Source: a virus
Taxonomy: Duplodnaviria > Heunggongvirae > Uroviricota > Caudoviricetes
Virus record (IMG/VR): IMGVR_UViG_2565956726_000010
Length of the DNA: 24,850 nucleotides
Reading direction: 5' to 3' (one strand)
Each line of letters opens with the position of its first letter. Position 1 is the stretch's first letter. Below, one piece after another: positions 1 to 24,850 of this stretch. The notes under the pieces were generated by a model. It was not told the origin of the DNA. It saw only the letters and a list, made by a program, of their open reading frames with translations, and made no database searches. The translations under genes and the position numbers were made by a program.

Positions 1-288
1 TTAACGGATCAACATCCAGATCAGCAGACACGCCACCACCGGCACAGCAAAATCCATCAGGCTTGCCACATCCCACACGCGCGGATCAAAACCGCCCCAC
101 CACGGCATGTTAATCCTCTTGCCATGCCCAAACATTTCAATCCAGCGATATTCTGCCTGGGTGTGTTCACGCGCAATGAAGAACGTACAACCGGCTATCG
201 CACCGTAAGCCCAGTTTCCGGTAAAAAGACCAGCCAGTACCTGCACCGCTACGGCACAAAGCGCATGAAGTATCGACGTGATATCCAT
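1..288 (-). CDS. small integral membrane protein, function unknown (95 aa)
   Basis: ATG at 288..286 preceded by AAGGA Shine-Dalgarno about 6 nt upstream; stop TAA at 3..1, exactly at the window edge; two to three hydrophobic segments (ILHALCAVAVQVLAGLFTG, MDFAVPVVACLLIWMLI); starts 9 nt after the stop of the 298..576 gene, same strand. Confidence 0.45.
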   Translation of the reverse strand: MDITSILHALCAVAVQVLAGLFTGNWAYGAIAGCTFFIAREHTQAEYRWIEMFGHGKRINMPWWGGFDPRVWDVASLMDFAVPVVACLLIWMLIR

Positions 289-297
289 CTGCTATCC

Positions 298-576
298 TTA
301 AAACCACTCCCTGAGCGGGCGCTCTGGTGTAACCACCCACTCACGGAACACGGAATCATCAAATCCATCGTCAAGAAGACGGATATTAACAAAGTACCCT
401 TCGTTTCGCGTGTATTCTGGTTCTCCGTCATCAGAAACATCTGTCTCCCTGAACGTAAAACCAATCTCATCAACCAGAACGGCATTCTGCAGCTCTTCGT
501 CCTCTTCCCAGTTAAGTTTCCTGAGAAATGCCCTGAAATCTGCTTTATCACTGAAACGCAACGTGAAATCTCTCAC
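298..576 (-). CDS. small highly acidic protein, function unknown (92 aa, GTG start)
   Basis: GTG at 576..574 overlaps the stf stop codon (GTGA) and has a strong GGGGAGG Shine-Dalgarno 7 nt upstream; no internal Met; Asp/Glu-rich with few basic residues; occupies the position where lambda carries tfa but has a different size and composition. Confidence 0.45.
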   Translation of the reverse strand: MRDFTLRFSDKADFRAFLRKLNWEEDEELQNAVLVDEIGFTFRETDVSDDGEPEYTRNEGYFVNIRLLDDGFDDSVFREWVVTPERPLREWF

Positions 577-2636
577 TCCACAACCTCCCCAAGCTGCGCA
601 TCTGTTAGCTCTTTATGCCAGAGACGAAAATTCCTCACATGCCCAAATAAATGGCGTAATCCTGCTGTAGTTTGTCCACCAATGCGAATGGTTGCTGTAC
701 TCCGGATATATTCCCATTTGGTTTTAGTTTCGCTGCTTAACTTACCGTTACTGACTACACATGTGGACCGTTCGGACTTTACCCGCATACCAATAAGCAT
801 TTTTTCCAGCCCGGCATTTTCATTTATTCGTCGGTCTGAACCACCTATATCGCAATACGGAAAACCGTCGTACCCACCTGATGAACCAAACCCCATTACG
901 ATCCCCGCATCTGCCTGATGCCGGTATGTGTCAAAAACACGCGGTGCTGCATTTGGCGTTTTATACCAGTTCTTATGTACCTCACAAAGAACCGTAAAAG
1001 GAAGATTATAAAGATTATTCTTAATCGGAACTGTAACCATATCGCTTGCCCGCGTTACCGGTGCCGTCCCCGTAACAATAAAAGATGATGCGCCTGTACC
1101 AGCCTCAATCTGTGGAGTGGTTACATCGAGATAATCCCCTGATGCAACCATCTGCCCTGTATCCGGAGAATACTGGACAAAACCACCAACCGTATTTTCT
1201 GTTGTATCTGCTTTTAATGTAGCCTCAAAAAATATCCAGCCAGTTGCATCATCCTTAACAGACCTTGCTGTAACACGGCTTGTCTGACCTGTCTTGCTAA
1301 TTATGCGGGTGGTAAGGTTCAGGTTTGCTGCTCCTATTGATGTCCTTACCTCCCCATCATAATGTTCAAATAAAATACGAACGGCGATATTATCAACTTC
1401 ACTTTTTACCCGACAGGATATAGTTACATGCTTTTCGTCCCCTGAAGTATCAACCCCTCCGGTACTCGAATACAGTCCGATAATGGTATGCGCTTTACTT
1501 GTACCAACAATCGAATCCTGTACGACAAACCGGCCATAATTAAACCCGAAACTATCTGTGCCTGTTTCTGTAACGTCCAGTGAAGTTGACTTATTCCACT
1601 TCGAAGGGTCTGTACTGTTCTGGAAGAAGTTCGTTCTTTGTCCCTCAATAAGCAGGCCATCACACTCAAATCGTGGCTCATTAATTTCCGCCGTTTTCAG
1701 TTCGCCAGATTTGTTGATATATGTTGCCGTTGATGCGCGACTGAAATTAATCTGTTTATCACTGGCAACCTGAACCACATTATCGCCAATCTTCACTTTT
1801 TTATAACCCGGAGAATAGCCCGTAATCATATCCAGCGAATCATTAAAGGGTATCCACACATCCGGCAGCGGCTGTAAAACATATCTGTACGGCTCTGCTG
1901 TCTGGTTTGCGTATTCTCTGGCAGCATCTTCACTTGCTTTTGCTGCCGTCTGGCTTGCTGCCGATGCTTTCGCCGAGTTCGCCGCCGCTGTTTCGCTCAC
2001 CTTTGCGTTGGCTTCACTGTCTTTGGCATTCGTCTCACTGGTTTTCGCTGCCGTCTGGCTGGATTTTGCGTTTTTTTCGCTGGCCTTTGTGGCTGTCTCG
2101 CTATTTTTCGCGTTGGTTTCTGATTTTTTGGCTGCTGTCGCGGAGTTTGCCGATGCAGTCTGCGAGGCCGCTGCCGCCTGTGCGCTGTTAGCTGCATTCG
2201 TTTCTGAGGTTTTCGCCGCATTCTTCGATGAGGCTGCTGCCGTTTCGGATTTCTTTGCCGCCGCTGCACTCTGTGATGACGCTCCGGCATGACGTGCCAC
2301 TTCATTCACCATCAGCTCAAAACGGCGCAGTGCCTCCGGACGAACATCATCCTCCGTCATGGCGCCGAGAAAATCATTCAGCGTACCTGGTCTGGAACCT
2401 TCATAGACGGTAATGGTCCCGGCATGTGAAGGTGGAAAACCTTCAACCAGCAGGGTGACGCTGTACTGGCCATACTCAACATCCATGCTGTAACGCCCGG
2501 CTTCATCCGGATTTTCAGAGGCCACCGTGTTCACCACCACCGTGCTGCTGGTCCGTCTGGCCTTCAGCACAATGGTGCAGTTCTGTACTGGTTTTCCTGT
2601 GCCATCTTTAAGCACGCCAGAAATTTTTACTGTCAT
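573..2636 (-). CDS. stf: side tail fiber protein (lambda Stf-like N-terminus, Ala/Ser/Thr-rich repeat shaft, non-lambda C-terminal domain)
   Basis: N-terminus MTVKISGVLKDGTGKPVQNCTIVLKA... is near-identical to my recollection of lambda Stf; ATG at 2636..2634; C-terminal ~450 aa unlike lambda and ending in a motif (VRNFRLWHKELTDAQL) resembling the C-terminal signature of LamG/concanavalin-like jellyroll domains. Confidence 0.9.
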   Translation of the reverse strand: MTVKISGVLKDGTGKPVQNCTIVLKARRTSSTVVVNTVASENPDEAGRYSMDVEYGQYSVTLLVEGFPPSHAGTITVYEGSRPGTLNDFLGAMTEDDVRPEALRRFELMVNEVARHAGASSQSAAAAKKSETAAASSKNAAKTSETNAANSAQAAAASQTASANSATAAKKSETNAKNSETATKASEKNAKSSQTAAKTSETNAKDSEANAKVSETAAANSAKASAASQTAAKASEDAAREYANQTAEPYRYVLQPLPDVWIPFNDSLDMITGYSPGYKKVKIGDNVVQVASDKQINFSRASTATYINKSGELKTAEINEPRFECDGLLIEGQRTNFFQNSTDPSKWNKSTSLDVTETGTDSFGFNYGRFVVQDSIVGTSKAHTIIGLYSSTGGVDTSGDEKHVTISCRVKSEVDNIAVRILFEHYDGEVRTSIGAANLNLTTRIISKTGQTSRVTARSVKDDATGWIFFEATLKADTTENTVGGFVQYSPDTGQMVASGDYLDVTTPQIEAGTGASSFIVTGTAPVTRASDMVTVPIKNNLYNLPFTVLCEVHKNWYKTPNAAPRVFDTYRHQADAGIVMGFGSSGGYDGFPYCDIGGSDRRINENAGLEKMLIGMRVKSERSTCVVSNGKLSSETKTKWEYIRSTATIRIGGQTTAGLRHLFGHVRNFRLWHKELTDAQLGEVVE
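1919..2285 (-). repeat. in-frame tandem short repeats encoding an Ala/Ser/Thr/Lys-rich low-complexity shaft inside stf
   Basis: Protein residues ~118-240 are iterations of units like AAKTSETNA / AKKSETNAKNSE; the DNA shows repeated gcttctgaaac / gccgctgc-type units; spurious ORFs appear in several frames on both strands here. Confidence 0.6.
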
Positions 2637-2787: not shown

Positions 2788-3387
2788 TCAGAAACGGTAT
2801 CCGATACCAACAATAAATGCATCCGTTCGCCAGTCGCCACTGCCGGAGCCTTCATAAGCAATATCAATGGCCACGGATTCGGTCGGGTTAAACTGCACGC
2901 CAGCTCCCCACGCCAGAGAGGTATTGCTGTGGCGACCGTCATCACTTCCGGTCAGCACGTCGTGCGTTTTCCCCTTGTTGTCAGTTACGCGGAGATAATC
3001 CCCGGAGAAAGTCGACACACGGCTGTAAGCCACACCCGCGATCGCATACGCGCTGAACCATTCATTCACGCGCACAGACGGCCCCGCCATCACGCTGAAC
3101 CAGCGGTTACGCACGGAATCTTCATGCCAGCGGGTATCGCTGTAATGCGTTTTTTGCTCATCTTTGGCATTGGCATAACTGAATGACGTCACCAGCCCCA
3201 GCGTGTCCGTAAATTCATAACGGTATTTCACGTTAATGCCCTTCAGGTCATCGCTGCCTGGCATATCAGTATGGGTCTGAAGATACCCGGCGCTTAGTGT
3301 GGACTGATGCTCTGCTGCGCTCGCTGGCGTACCAGCGGCGACCAGCCAGACTACTGTGGACAGAATAACAGCACATAATTTACGCAT
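2788..3387 (-). CDS. lom: Lom outer membrane protein (Ail/Lom/PagC family beta-barrel)
   Basis: 199 aa with N-terminal signal peptide (MRKLCAVILSTVVWLVAAGTPASA), C-terminal aromatic terminus (...GIGYRF) typical of OM beta-barrels; same position as lambda lom between J and stf; ATG at 3387..3385. Confidence 0.9.
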   Translation of the reverse strand: MRKLCAVILSTVVWLVAAGTPASAAEHQSTLSAGYLQTHTDMPGSDDLKGINVKYRYEFTDTLGLVTSFSYANAKDEQKTHYSDTRWHEDSVRNRWFSVMAGPSVRVNEWFSAYAIAGVAYSRVSTFSGDYLRVTDNKGKTHDVLTGSDDGRHSNTSLAWGAGVQFNPTESVAIDIAYEGSGSGDWRTDAFIVGIGYRF

Positions 3388-17036: not shown

Positions 17037-17636
17037 TTATGCATTAAGAAGGGTCAAAAGACGCTCACGCGCCATTCGTTCGTTAACAGCTTTCTTCAGC
17101 GCACCACTCGCCCGCGCTTCCTGCCAGGCTTTCATTGAGCGGACACCAGAGTCTGCGTCCTGATAGGCCGGATATGTCACCGGGCTGACGTCATACAGAC
17201 GAGAAATGCGCGTGATTTCCCGGATAACAATCCCCTCGTCGTCTTCATACCAGCTCTCTCCGTCACGGGCGACACGAAACGCGAACGAGGACTGATTAAT
17301 GTCACCACGCAACATTGGAGACAGCACCAGGTCACAAATAGTCGGAGTATCCGGTGCAACAATGTCATAACGTAAACCGCGTTCATCCACCGACAATGAC
17401 AACGTGCCGGCAAAACTTCGTCCGAGAATGAAATTAGGATCATGATTAAACAAGCCACGTACATCATCATTCAGTACATCATCAAAAGCCCCCGGCTTGA
17501 TGATTTCACGAAATCCCCACAGAGGTTCTGAACGACTGTTAAATACCGAGCCATACCCCAGAATGTGGGTCGGGGCATTATCATATTGTTCCGCCCGCAC
17601 CTCCCCGCTGTAACAGCGCGTTTCACGGTCATTCAT
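17037..17636 (-). CDS. prohead maturation protease (HK97 family, S78)
   Basis: 199 aa between portal and major capsid genes; overlaps the portal stop by 8 nt; size and position characteristic. Confidence 0.85.
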   Translation of the reverse strand: MNDRETRCYSGEVRAEQYDNAPTHILGYGSVFNSRSEPLWGFREIIKPGAFDDVLNDDVRGLFNHDPNFILGRSFAGTLSLSVDERGLRYDIVAPDTPTICDLVLSPMLRGDINQSSFAFRVARDGESWYEDDEGIVIREITRISRLYDVSPVTYPAYQDADSGVRSMKAWQEARASGALKKAVNERMARERLLTLLNA

Positions 17637-21878: not shown

Positions 21879-22418
21879 ATGGATATTAAAGATAAAATCA
21901 ATACCATTTTGTTATGTGACATTGCCATCCACCTAGGTATCGAAACTGATATTGATCCACAGCTTGTTAAATATGCTGTGTCATCTGGTAATGATTGGGT
22001 TATCAAGGCCGAATATTCACATTTGGATGTTGACGAACCAAGTAAAGAAGATCGTGATTTTGTTACTGCTGTCTTGAATATGTATCGCGGACTTTCCAAT
22101 GCTTTCAGGAAACTTAGTGATGACGAGCAAAAAGAATTAGTCCGTGACCATCATCTAAAAATACATGATGGGGCAATTCAGCTCCCAGGTTTCGACGGTA
22201 ATAATGAATGCGATTACTTCAGTATCATTGAGGCATATCAGAAAATTGATCGCTTCCCCGAACAGAAACAGCCCATTGCCAATACTCATTCACGTACAGA
22301 ACATCTCTATAACGCAATGCTTGATGAGTTTAAGAAAATTGACGCTGTAAATCGAAGCTGGGATTTATCGAAGGAAGAACTGGCATCCATTCTTTCCACA
22401 GCTCCACGCAGTTTCTAA
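21879..22418 (+). CDS. YfbU-family (UPF0304)-like protein, 179 aa; moron on the opposite strand to the phage late operon
   Basis: ATG 21879 with AGAGG Shine-Dalgarno ~8 nt upstream; AT-rich coding sequence; by-eye alignment to my recollection of E. coli YfbU across four blocks ([24 protein letters not shown] ~ [34 protein letters not shown] ~ [29 protein letters not shown] ~ [29 protein letters not shown] ~ LSANEINQII); followed by a hairpin terminator. Confidence 0.6.
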   Translation: [179 protein letters not shown]

Positions 22419-22423
22419 GTGCT

Positions 22424-22690
22424 TTAGGCGGGTTTCCAACCCGCCTTATTATGCTCGTATATAGAGAAGGAAGCACCCAAATTAACCAGCGCGGATTTCT
22501 TTTCCTCAATACGGCTGTTAAGTTCAGCAACTGCATGCGGGCGTATGGCCTCAAGAAAAGCACTATATTGATAGGCAGACTGGATTGTCACACCAAGCCC
22601 TGCACCACTTTCCAGTATACCTTTCTGTCGCTGTAGCTCTTTCATCTCGTTATAGATGTAATGTGCGTTACTTAGGTTTTCTACGTTCAC
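22424..22690 (-). CDS. hypothetical 88-aa protein (GTG start) convergent with the YfbU-like gene
   Basis: Protein-like helical composition; AGGAAG about 10 nt upstream of GTG 22690..22688; alternative ATG at 22645 gives 73 aa; its last codons overlap the terminator hairpin, which lowers confidence. Confidence 0.35.
   Translation of the reverse strand: MNVENLSNAHYIYNEMKELQRQKGILESGAGLGVTIQSAYQYSAFLEAIRPHAVAELNSRIEEKKSALVNLGASFSIYEHNKAGWKPA
22426..22447 (+). terminator. intrinsic terminator after the YfbU-like gene (possibly bidirectional)
   Basis: AGGCGGGTT-TCCA-AACCCGCCT followed by TATTATG, 8 nt after the plus-strand stop codon; it overlaps the 3' end of the convergent 88-aa ORF. Confidence 0.5.
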
Positions 22691-22845: not shown

Positions 22846-23313
22846 TTATCTGAGACATTGCTCACGAATGTATAGCTGTGCCCCTTCCAGTTGCTTCTGC
22901 ATCGTCATCAACCGTTCTCTGAGGGTGAAATAATCCCGTTCAGCGGTGTCTGCCAGTCTGGGGCTGGTTGCATTATCCACGCTGGTGGGTCCGGTGGCTT
23001 CACGCACGGCTGCGGAGCAACTGGCATTGACCCGCAGGCGCTTACGACCAGCGGCAACATCAGCGCGCAGAGTTTCATTTTCAGCTTTCGCATTGGCTAA
23101 TTCTCTCGAGTACTTTGCATCGAGCGCAGCAACATCACGCTGACGCTGTTGCATGTCAGCGATGGTGGCAGTCGCCTGCTTCAGCTCACTGACTTTTTTA
23201 TCACGCTGTTCTTTGTAGGCGATGGCGTTATCACGGTAATGATTGACCGCCCACGACAGGCAGACGATGGTGCAGATAACCAGAGTATAAATAATCGCTG
23301 CGACTCTGCTCAC
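22846..23313 (-). CDS. Rz: i-spanin Rz
   Basis: Aligns to lambda Rz ([33 protein letters not shown] vs lambda [33 protein letters not shown]); start taken as GTG 23313..23311 overlapping the endolysin stop; the ORF track's upstream extension begins at a TTG. Confidence 0.85.
22908..23093 (-). CDS. Rz1: o-spanin Rz1 (lipoprotein embedded in Rz in the +1 frame)
   Basis: 61 aa [22 protein letters not shown]... with lipobox Cys and a proline-rich segment, C-terminus ...[15 protein letters not shown] as in lambda Rz1; entirely inside Rz. Confidence 0.85.
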
Positions 23314-23843
23314 TGATCTATCCCCCAACAGGCTAATGCGCTTTCCTGGTCACGACGAATAACCTGTCCATAGCAGTTATTTGAACGTATGCGGCAATCG
23401 CGCCCACCATCTTTTATCCACCAGCGAATCGCCTCGCATGCGCCCTTACGATCACCGGCATTCAGCCGCTTATAAAACGTCGACGGGAAACACTTACCGG
23501 GGCCAATGTTATAGGGACAGAATGACGCTATACCCGCTTTCTGTGGTTCGGTCAGTGGTACTTTAATATTGCGCTCTACCCATGCCAGCGCCTTATCACG
23601 TTCAATAGCGTTAACCTGGTCGCATTTTTCCTTCGACAGCTTCATTCCCGGTATGACGGGCTTACCATCCACCATTGTGGCACCCCGACAGATGGTCCAG
23701 ATGCCGGCCCCATCGCGGTATGCCGTTGTGTGGTTACCTTCTTTTTCATCCAGAAACTGGTCGAGAATATCAGGCGCGGGCGCACCGACGGCAATCAGTG
23801 CCAGAACGGCAGCCGACAGGCCGTATCTGATTTTTGCGTTCAT
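23310..23843 (-). CDS. R: endolysin, T4-lysozyme-like glycosidase with N-terminal SAR (signal-arrest-release) segment
   Basis: 177 aa; weakly hydrophobic Gly/Ala-rich N-terminus ([18 protein letters not shown]) followed by a catalytic region with E...D...T spacing ([20 protein letters not shown]), as in phage 21 / P1 SAR lysozymes. Confidence 0.85.
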
Positions 23844-23906
23844 GGATATTTATCAGGATTTATCGGTTTCTGCCCACGGACAGGTTTATCTGTTCCGGTC
23901 AGTGAC

Positions 23907-24257
23907 TTAAGGTTGTGATTCCGGAGGAGTCTTCAGAGAACCAGTAATTCTTCCTGGTAGCTTTCCTTTGTAGGTTATCCACACATTCTGCGCCTCTAAA
24001 ATTACGGGGCGCTTTTCCGGCGACTGCTCATCCCCTTCACATAACCCGGCAGCAACATCCAGGAAGACCTGTCTGATGCTCCTTCTGGCTGCTGCCTCAT
24101 AAAACCCCAGCGCGGCACCTTCAACACGGTCCAGCGAGATGTCCAGGTCAAAAATTTCACCGTCAAAGCGTTTTTTGTCCCGTAACGCTAAAGTTACCGT
24201 AACTTTATTCTCAAAATTGCGGATCCCTTTCACAATCAGTTCATAGTTTTGAGTCAT
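23907..24257 (-). CDS. hypothetical 116-aa soluble protein upstream of the endolysin (possibly DUF1327-like)
   Basis: Native start ATG 24257..24255 (MTQNYELIVKG...) with GGGGAGAG Shine-Dalgarno 7 nt upstream; no hydrophobic segment, so not a holin; I recall an unrelated-function gene in the same position (ydfR in E. coli Qin) but cannot verify family membership. The ORF-track extension to 24311 is an IS2 read-out artefact. Confidence 0.55.
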   Translation of the reverse strand: MTQNYELIVKGIRNFENKVTVTLALRDKKRFDGEIFDLDISLDRVEGAALGFYEAAARRSIRQVFLDVAAGLCEGDEQSPEKRPVILEAQNVWITYKGKLPGRITGSLKTPPESQP

Positions 24258-24284
24258 TGAATTACTCTCCCCGTGCAGCCTTAC

Positions 24285-24850
24285 TGGATTTGCCCCTATA
24301 TTTCCAGACACCTGTTATCACTTAACCCATTACTGGCTTGCTGCCGTAGATATTCCCGTGGCGAGCGATAACCCAGTGCACTATGCGGATGCCATTCGTT
24401 ATAATGCTCGAACGCCTCTGCAAGGTTCTTTGCTGCCGTTAACCCGTCTGGTTTGGGCATGACACTGATGTAGTCACGCTTTATCGTTTTCACGAAGCTC
24501 TCTGCTATGCCGTTACTCTCCGGACTCCGCACCGCCGTGCTCTTCGGTTCAAGCCCCAACATCCGGGCAAACTGCCGTGTTTCATTAGCCCGGTAGCATG
24601 AACCATTATCCGTCAGCCACTCTACTGGAGACGCCGGAAGCTCGTTGCCGAAGCGGCGTTCCACCGCTCCCAGCATGACGTCCTGTACTGTTTCACTGTT
24701 GAAGCCGCCCGTAGTGACCGCCCAGTGCAGTGCCTCACGGTCACAGCAGTCCAGCGCGAACGTGACTCGCAGTTTTTCTCCGTTATCACAGCGGAACTCG
24801 AACCCGTCAGAGCACCATCGCTGATTACTTTCTTTCACAGCCACTCTGCC
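24285..24850 (-). mobile_element. IS2 insertion sequence, right-end portion (element continues beyond the window)
   Basis: Terminal sequence tggatttgcccctatatttccagaca at 24285..24310 matches the IS2 right inverted repeat as I recall it; the adjacent ORF translates to the C-terminal part of IS2 transposase InsD. Confidence 0.9.
24296..24850 (-). CDS. insD: IS2 transposase InsD (orfB, DDE integrase core), 5'-truncated by the window edge
   Basis: Translation ...[66 protein letters not shown]...[36 protein letters not shown] is near-identical to my recollection of IS2 InsD; the first codon in the window is GTG (Val), not a true start. Confidence 0.9.

Follow-up and report, generated by a model that had tools for sequence, protein, structure and literature searches.

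The locus described here has its closest described relatives in the lysis cassette of phage 21, which comprises the S21 pinholin, endolysin and Rz/Rz1, and in the Qin cassette of Escherichia coli K-12 (essQ-ydfR-rrrQ-rzpQ), where the order is holin, ydfR, lysozyme and Rz/Rz1. Systematic C-terminal truncation of the phage 21 holin, S21-68, down to K56 leaves pore formation unimpaired (bioRxiv 10.1101/2021.04.20.440580), a result that concerns pore formation under overexpression and not lysis timing. [quoted passage not shown] RNA polymerase modified by Q proteins resists termination, and suppression of polarity is documented for lambda Q (PMC12360218). As for IS2, fusion promoters created by this element are known at ampC, acrEF and neoR (PMC9330008), and in the promoter formed at the IS2 minicircle junction the outward -35 element of the right inverted repeat (IRR) strictly needs a 17-bp spacer (PMC3299598).

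Here we compare with these systems a lambdoid prophage locus of E. coli in which a first-pass annotation had recognised the right end of IS2, placed it in the leader of the late operon and proposed that the insertion could be either strongly polar or the source of an outward hybrid promoter. The window, by which we mean the whole 24,850-nt stretch of DNA analysed, ends inside the element.

Results

The coordinates of the element and of the genes next to it are collected in Table 1. On the minus strand, positions 24326..24285 end in ...GTTAAGTGATAACAGGTGTCTGGAAATATAGGGGCAAATCCA, the sequence of the IS2 right inverted repeat, whose outermost base is 24285. Canonical and variant copies all share the 20 nt nearest the tip (TGGATTTGCCCCTATATTTC), and they likewise share the remainder of the terminal 41 nt save for element position 1305, at which the window departs from canonical IS2. 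The minus-strand transposase ORF matches Pfam rve and rve_3, and it matches NCBIfam NF006918 ('IS2 transposase TnpB') over model positions 118-301 of 301 with an E-value of 3.7e-128, the score falling short of the full-length cut-off solely through truncation of the ORF at the window end. By BLAST, 7309 records of the E. coli collection carry the element, a match far beyond chance.

Under the ISfinder rule, isoforms share at least 95% nucleotide identity with the reference. Positions 24285..24850 share 95.6-95.8% identity with the canonical copies of IS2 in L001 and L002, and 100% with complete 1331-bp elements from further E. coli genomes (L003, L004), so that the 566 bp present fall within the rule, if at its borderline in that part. 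Over the full 1331 bp, copies with a 3' part identical to the window reach 97.7-97.8% identity to the canonical form. Isoform and canonical IS2 differ at 30 nt, 6 of them in positions 1-765 and 24 in 766-1331, and the OrfB part within the window carries 8 amino-acid differences from canonical IS2. Judged by these alignments, the window element is best described as a mosaic IS2 isoform rather than canonical IS2. The claim that the terminal sequence and the InsD translation match IS2 therefore held for the tip, for rve and for NF006918, with the qualification that the match is to an isoform and not to the canonical element. The NCBI pipeline labels the isoform's transposase (WP_102384962.1) as 'IS3 family transposase' and does not use 'IS2 family' for it.

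Table 1. Features at and around the insertion, in window coordinates
Feature	Position	Strand	Basis
IS2 isoform, right-hand 566 bp (element positions 766-1331 of 1331)	24285..24850	-	sequence identity
Right inverted repeat (IRR), 41 bp, tip ...GGGGCAAATCCA at 24285	24285..24325	-	sequence; length per PMC3299598
OrfB/InsD-like DDE transposase, C-terminal 184 codons and stop (TAG 24296..24298)	24296..24850	-	Pfam, NCBIfam
GTAAG, right copy of the expected 5-bp target-site duplication	24280..24284	-	identity to uninterrupted prophage starts here
Holin gene S remnant, last 23 nt, ..(R)K A A R G E stop	24262..24284	-	alignment to L006
ydfR Shine-Dalgarno GGGGAGAG, inside holin 3' end, retained	24265..24272	-	sequence
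ydfR-family gene (DUF1327), 116 aa, intact, ATG 24257	23907..24257	-	Pfam
Mechanical 134-aa ORF, GTG start: 9 IS codons, 9 codons of holin end and spacer, ydfR	23907..24311	-	ORF list
Endolysin (phage lysozyme, RrrQ-like), intact	23310..23843	-	Pfam Phage_lysozyme
Rz spanin gene, intact, with embedded Rz1 (22908..23093)	22846..23313	-	Pfam Phage_lysis

All 12 full copies fetched, canonical and isoform, are 1331 bp long and are flanked by perfect 5-bp target duplications. In each of them the left end starts TAGACTGG (longer read, TAGACTGGCCCCC), the first letters being TAG, and element positions 1-765 are present in the copies with the identical 3' part elsewhere. Among the copies compared, L005 has the isoform 3' part at 99.5% yet shows 34 differences from L004 overall (97.4%), a pattern that suggests recombination between IS2 forms. 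In L023 (NZ_LT601384.1 879874-882304) the IS2 isoform is nested in another IS2-like copy, the target sequence CGCCACGGGAATATCTACGGCAGCAAGCCAGTAATGGG being the 3' end of IS2 orfB. An apparent target motif, GTnAG/GCWGCA, in the right flanks of the window, L003, L004, L005 and L022-L028 was rejected as an artefact of ranking and selection, because the BLAST query held the window flank and the top of the 27,652 IS places were those with flanks that extended the alignment.

The window ends at 24850, within the IS, at the edge of a contig: the source scaffold (KI530680.1 of GCA_000488135.1; L017) has a gap of 964 N directly beyond the IS part. The IS left end sits unassembled in this gap, and only IS positions 766-1331 are present. 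After the 964 N the scaffold resumes exactly at the last bases of the window (GGCAGAGTGGCTG...). Its order is Q antiterminator, three tRNA genes, leader, 964 N and then the window sequence, which is the native order and orientation, and across the gap the scaffold matches the uninterrupted leader with 100% identity to a point 270 bp ahead of the holin ATG, the leader before the gap reading ..GGGATAATCGCGGATTCAG. The three tRNA genes lie outside the window (1190..1822 of the source scaffold) and are of Met/Ile-type CAT, Arg TCG and Arg TCT; the first is annotated as tRNA-Ile by RefSeq in L006. The window's prohead protease (17037..17636) represents a rare allele that occurs on 3 contigs. In a second assembly with this allele, a contig begins at TAAGGCTGCACGG, 1 nt into the duplication, which places a contig break at this junction, where a repeat boundary would lead one to expect it.

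Comparison with uninterrupted homologous prophages, which the first-pass annotation had proposed as a way of finding the disrupted site, located it at the 3' end of the holin gene S. Thirteen uninterrupted records are 100% identical to window positions 23300..24284 (985 bp up to the junction), and identity to uninterrupted prophages is 99.8% across all 24,284 bp, the prophage of UPEC129 (NZ_CP071522.1) being an example. In one of these uninterrupted prophages (L006), Q is followed by the tRNAs, a class II holin of 71 aa, a 4-nt spacer, a YdfR-family gene, lysozyme and Rz, and in its alignment identity to the window begins exactly at GTAAGGCTGCACGGGGAGAGTAA TTCA ATG. The 27 nt between the IS tip and the ydfR ATG are, by this alignment, the last 23 nt of the holin gene and the 4-nt spacer. 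The L006 holin (MKSMDK...YFKIREDRRKAARGE, ending ...EDRRKAARGE-stop) matches Pfam Phage_holin_2_1; its cluster entry is named HOLIN_BPP21 and the protein is identical to phage 21 S. What the window holds is 23 nt that equal the 3' end of a gene encoding a protein identical to phage 21 S (class II holin, PF04971), with the body of the gene outside the window. In all 10 contexts sampled from public assemblies, an intact 71-aa holin lies 4 nt upstream of ydfR.

On account of this identity to the holin 3' end, the IS is inside gene S and not in the late-operon leader, where it had first been placed; the adjoining 27 nt are coding sequence and spacer. Likewise, the 116-aa gene taken for the first of the lysis region is ydfR (DUF1327), which follows the holin in 10/10 contexts. 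The geometry reported in the first-pass annotation is borne out: the IS2 right end is immediately upstream of the 116-aa gene, 27 nt separating the tip (24285) from the ATG (24257), and the IS is on the minus strand like the lysis and morphogenesis genes, in the same orientation as late transcription. The idea that the element separates the lysis and morphogenesis genes from both the late promoter and the holin needs amending, in that it does stand between the late promoter side and ydfR, endolysin, Rz/Rz1 and the morphogenesis genes, whereas the holin itself is the target. Independent canonical IS2 copies were also seen in the same cassette in two other genomes, one inside the DUF1327 gene (L001, 4058..5744; duplication GTCGC) and one in a helix-turn-helix gene upstream of essQ (L002, 4747..6173; duplication ATTAT).

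The 116-aa protein matches PF07041 (DUF1327) with 141.6 bits against a cut-off of 25 (E-value 9.2e-42), and its homologue in relatives is annotated as YdfR family. Both the ATG and the Shine-Dalgarno of ydfR are intact; the one thing lost is the close, 4-nt spacing between this start and the stop codon of the holin. Uncoupling ydfR from the translation of S could make translation of ydfR or of the endolysin less efficient. A chimeric ORF beginning with 9 IS codons does exist mechanically, as had been reported. We rejected it as a gene: it is an extension produced by ORF calling from a GTG without a ribosome-binding site, and the normal ATG is intact. Its 134-aa product is absent from the public protein collection, and gene callers on the source scaffold give 116 aa.

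Further downstream, the exact Rz and Rz1 sequences are found in the collection as 'lysis protein' and 'Rz1 family lipoprotein', and the other late genes in the window (terminase small and large, portal, protease, capsid, tape measure, J, Lom and tail fibre) are full length. A YfbU-family gene (179 aa, 21879..22418, plus strand) separates Rz from the HNH/terminase genes and runs on the opposite strand; it is adjoined by an 88-aa ORF without a family match (22424..22690, minus strand) in a moron-like arrangement that is conserved in relatives. The gene for an Ail/Lom outer-membrane protein (2788..3387, minus strand; E-value 2.4e-127) has the position known from lambda, with the J tail-tip gene on one side and the tail-fibre gene on the other. 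A 264-aa ORF without a Pfam match (124..918, plus strand) overlaps the opposite-strand tail-fibre gene (573..2636, minus strand) and is probably not a gene.

Simple insertion with a GTAAG duplication would generate the left junction CGTCGTAAG/TAGACTGG (in its longer form ...GAGGACCGTCGTAAG/TAGACTGGCCCCC), the left flank being expected to read ...GACCGTCGTAAG. The predicted reading frame is then ...GAG GAC CGT CGT AAG/TAG, translating ...EDRRK-stop. Because the IS left end begins TAG in 12/12 copies, the holin would be a 66-aa protein that lacks AARGE. Exactly this 66-aa protein is encoded on 15 public E. coli contigs, where it is named 'Lysis protein S' or 'class II holin family protein', and we infer that these contigs are linked to the present lineage. 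HBN5291181.1, HBV1583212.1, HDB9943250.1 and VVY90454.1 are among the entries for it. Simple insertion at this site is very likely. The gap would be expected to hold 270 + 198 + 765 = 1233 bp after simple insertion and ~765 bp if the holin had been deleted; against these values a run of 964 N is too imprecise, and gap length was discarded as a test of insertion versus deletion. Neither the right nor the left junction string occurred exactly in GTDB representative genomes or JGI metagenomes, and IMG/VR, searched for the right one, lacked it too. With BLAST, pieces spanning the junction aligned across the right junction to none of the RefSeq complete E. coli genomes and to none of the phage records.

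The predicted holin ends at the residue corresponding to K63 in S21-68 numbering. Given that truncation to K56 is tolerated, the 66-aa holin probably keeps pore formation, with the loss of five C-terminal cytoplasmic residues. As read from the sequence, removal of AARGE takes away one R and one E and leaves the net charge of the tail unchanged.

A scan for hairpins followed by T-runs predicted no intrinsic terminator in the IS on either strand. Rho prefers C-rich, G-poor sites, and in the sense-orientation RNA of the IS the count of G is at least that of C in 12 of 14 segments of 100 nt. The native leader from Q to S runs for ~900 nt without a protein-coding gene and contains the three tRNA genes and terminator-like hairpins, from which it would follow that the late genes depend on Q-modified polymerase. 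Such hairpins between Q and the holin are as found in late regions of the Stx-phage type. Polarity suppression is documented for lambda Q, the Q of this prophage being PF06323-type. The lack of a predicted terminator, the G-rich sense RNA and the resistance that Q confers against termination together make it more likely that Q-modified polymerase reads through the IS, and strong polarity would be unlikely. A literature search on the polarity of lambda r32::IS2 returned nothing usable, and for this reason the classic orientation-dependent polarity of IS2 is not used as evidence here.

With regard to a promoter pointing out of the element, the putative -35 of the IRR is TGGAAA when assigned by the 17-bp spacer rule. 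The hexamer in the flank at this spacing is TAAGGC, which matches the -10 consensus at 2/6 positions and is without the final T, and a consensus scan of 23800..24850 found no minus-strand promoter. The pairing of a -35 with a -10-like hexamer at 17 bp, by which an IS-generated fusion promoter is recognised, does not occur at this junction.

Discussion

In our interpretation, which we consider likely as a whole, a 1331-bp IS2 isoform would have transposed, in one lineage of E. coli, into the 3' end of the S21-type pinholin gene that a lambdoid prophage carries. The element has the same orientation as the late operon and most likely arrived by simple copy-out/paste-in with duplication of GTAAG. 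The holin/antiholin pair would lose only its last five residues (AARGE) and would probably still form pores. The genes for ydfR, endolysin, Rz/Rz1 and morphogenesis would keep their own start signals while their distance from the Q-dependent late promoter grows by 1.3 kb. Polymerase modified by Q most likely crosses the IS, and induction should still bring about late gene expression, if perhaps at a reduced level, with no new outward promoter contributed by the element. In this account the nature of the element, its exact right junction, the gene it disrupts and the lack of a hybrid promoter motif are observed, and the left junction, a functioning holin and read-through are inferred.

The main competitor to this account is that the insertion is strongly polar or otherwise inactivating, either because transcription of the late genes ends within the IS or because the shortened holin and the uncoupled genes fail, leaving a defective prophage at a step towards domestication. 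There is precedent in that IS2 classically inactivates lambda genes, spontaneous P::IS2 having been recovered among survivors of prophage induction (PMC4926192). In addition, ~850 nt of orfB would be translated only after a rare frameshift, which may expose the RNA to Rho, and the independent IS2 copies of L001 and L002 in the same cassette show that this region often decays. However, the element has no predicted intrinsic terminator, its sense RNA is rich in G, polymerase loaded with Q resists termination and polarity (PMC12360218), the holin would be shorter by just five residues in a region where such truncations are tolerated, and every other late gene in the window is full length. We therefore regard an inactivating insertion as unlikely, though it is the best placed of the alternatives.

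A second reading, that the IS supplies an outward or hybrid promoter which drives ydfR, endolysin and downstream genes independently of Q, takes its appeal from the -35 of the IRR, from the fusion promoters at ampC, acrEF and neoR (PMC9330008) and from the possibility of weak read-out from the IS's own promoter. With TAAGGC at the required 17-bp spacing and no minus-strand promoter in the scan of 23800..24850, and with constitutive expression of the endolysin presumably selected against, we give this proposal of the first-pass annotation next to no weight. It is somewhat less improbable, but still quite improbable, that the event was not a simple insertion and that the holin body is missing or elsewhere through a deletion or rearrangement, or that the junction is an assembly artefact. 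The left end does fall in the 964-N gap, and the gap is shorter than simple insertion predicts. Against this, the scaffold joins the Q/tRNA leader and the IS-ydfR side in native order and orientation, the 66-aa product that simple insertion would create exists on 15 contigs, and the second assembly breaks at the same base.

With the IS in sense orientation within the late transcript that Q antiterminates, one may speculate further that heavy read-through on induction boosts OrfA/OrfAB and so couples bursts of IS2 transposition to prophage induction, with the IS riding in packaged genomes, or that the insertion, far from being neutral, is a selected attenuation which retunes holin/endolysin stoichiometry and the timing of lysis. 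We offer these ideas as long shots.

The annotation is thus corrected from 'IS2 in late leader' to 'IS2 isoform in 3' end of holin gene S'. With it, the predicted phenotype shifts from a late operon uncoupled from its promoter in a possibly dead prophage, to a holin shorter by 5 residues and a late operon that is probably read through; in calls of prophage intactness, the prophage of this lineage should be scored as possibly still inducible. The case also shows that a scaffold gap can hide a disrupted gene. Beyond annotation its importance is slight, this being an ordinary strain-specific insertion within known biology, since IS2 in lambdoid prophage genes has long been known.

Set beside the described systems, the element resembles IS2 of E. 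coli K-12 (IS3 family) in its inverted-repeat tips (TAGACTGG.../...GGGGCAAATCCA), in the OrfB DDE domain and, as seen in the copies with an identical 3' part, in the 5-bp duplications and the length of 1331 bp. It differs from the K-12 element in being an isoform, 95.7% identical in the last 566 bp and 97.7% overall. At the IS2 fusion promoters of ampC (Jaurin and Normark 1983) and acrEF, as here, an IS end with an outward -35 faces the downstream gene (PMC9330008), but the flank in the window offers no usable -10 at 17-bp spacing. The cassette itself follows phage 21, whose S is the holin of the uninterrupted relatives, and Qin, with which it shares the order of holin, ydfR, lysozyme and Rz/Rz1; unlike either, it has its holin gene split by an IS 23 nt before the end, with the body outside the window. 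Lastly, the spontaneous insertions of IS2 in lambda genes (P::IS2, PMC4926192) are alike in that IS2 has entered a lambdoid gene whose product can kill the host. Those insertions abolish the product, whereas here the holin would lose five C-terminal residues and is probably active.
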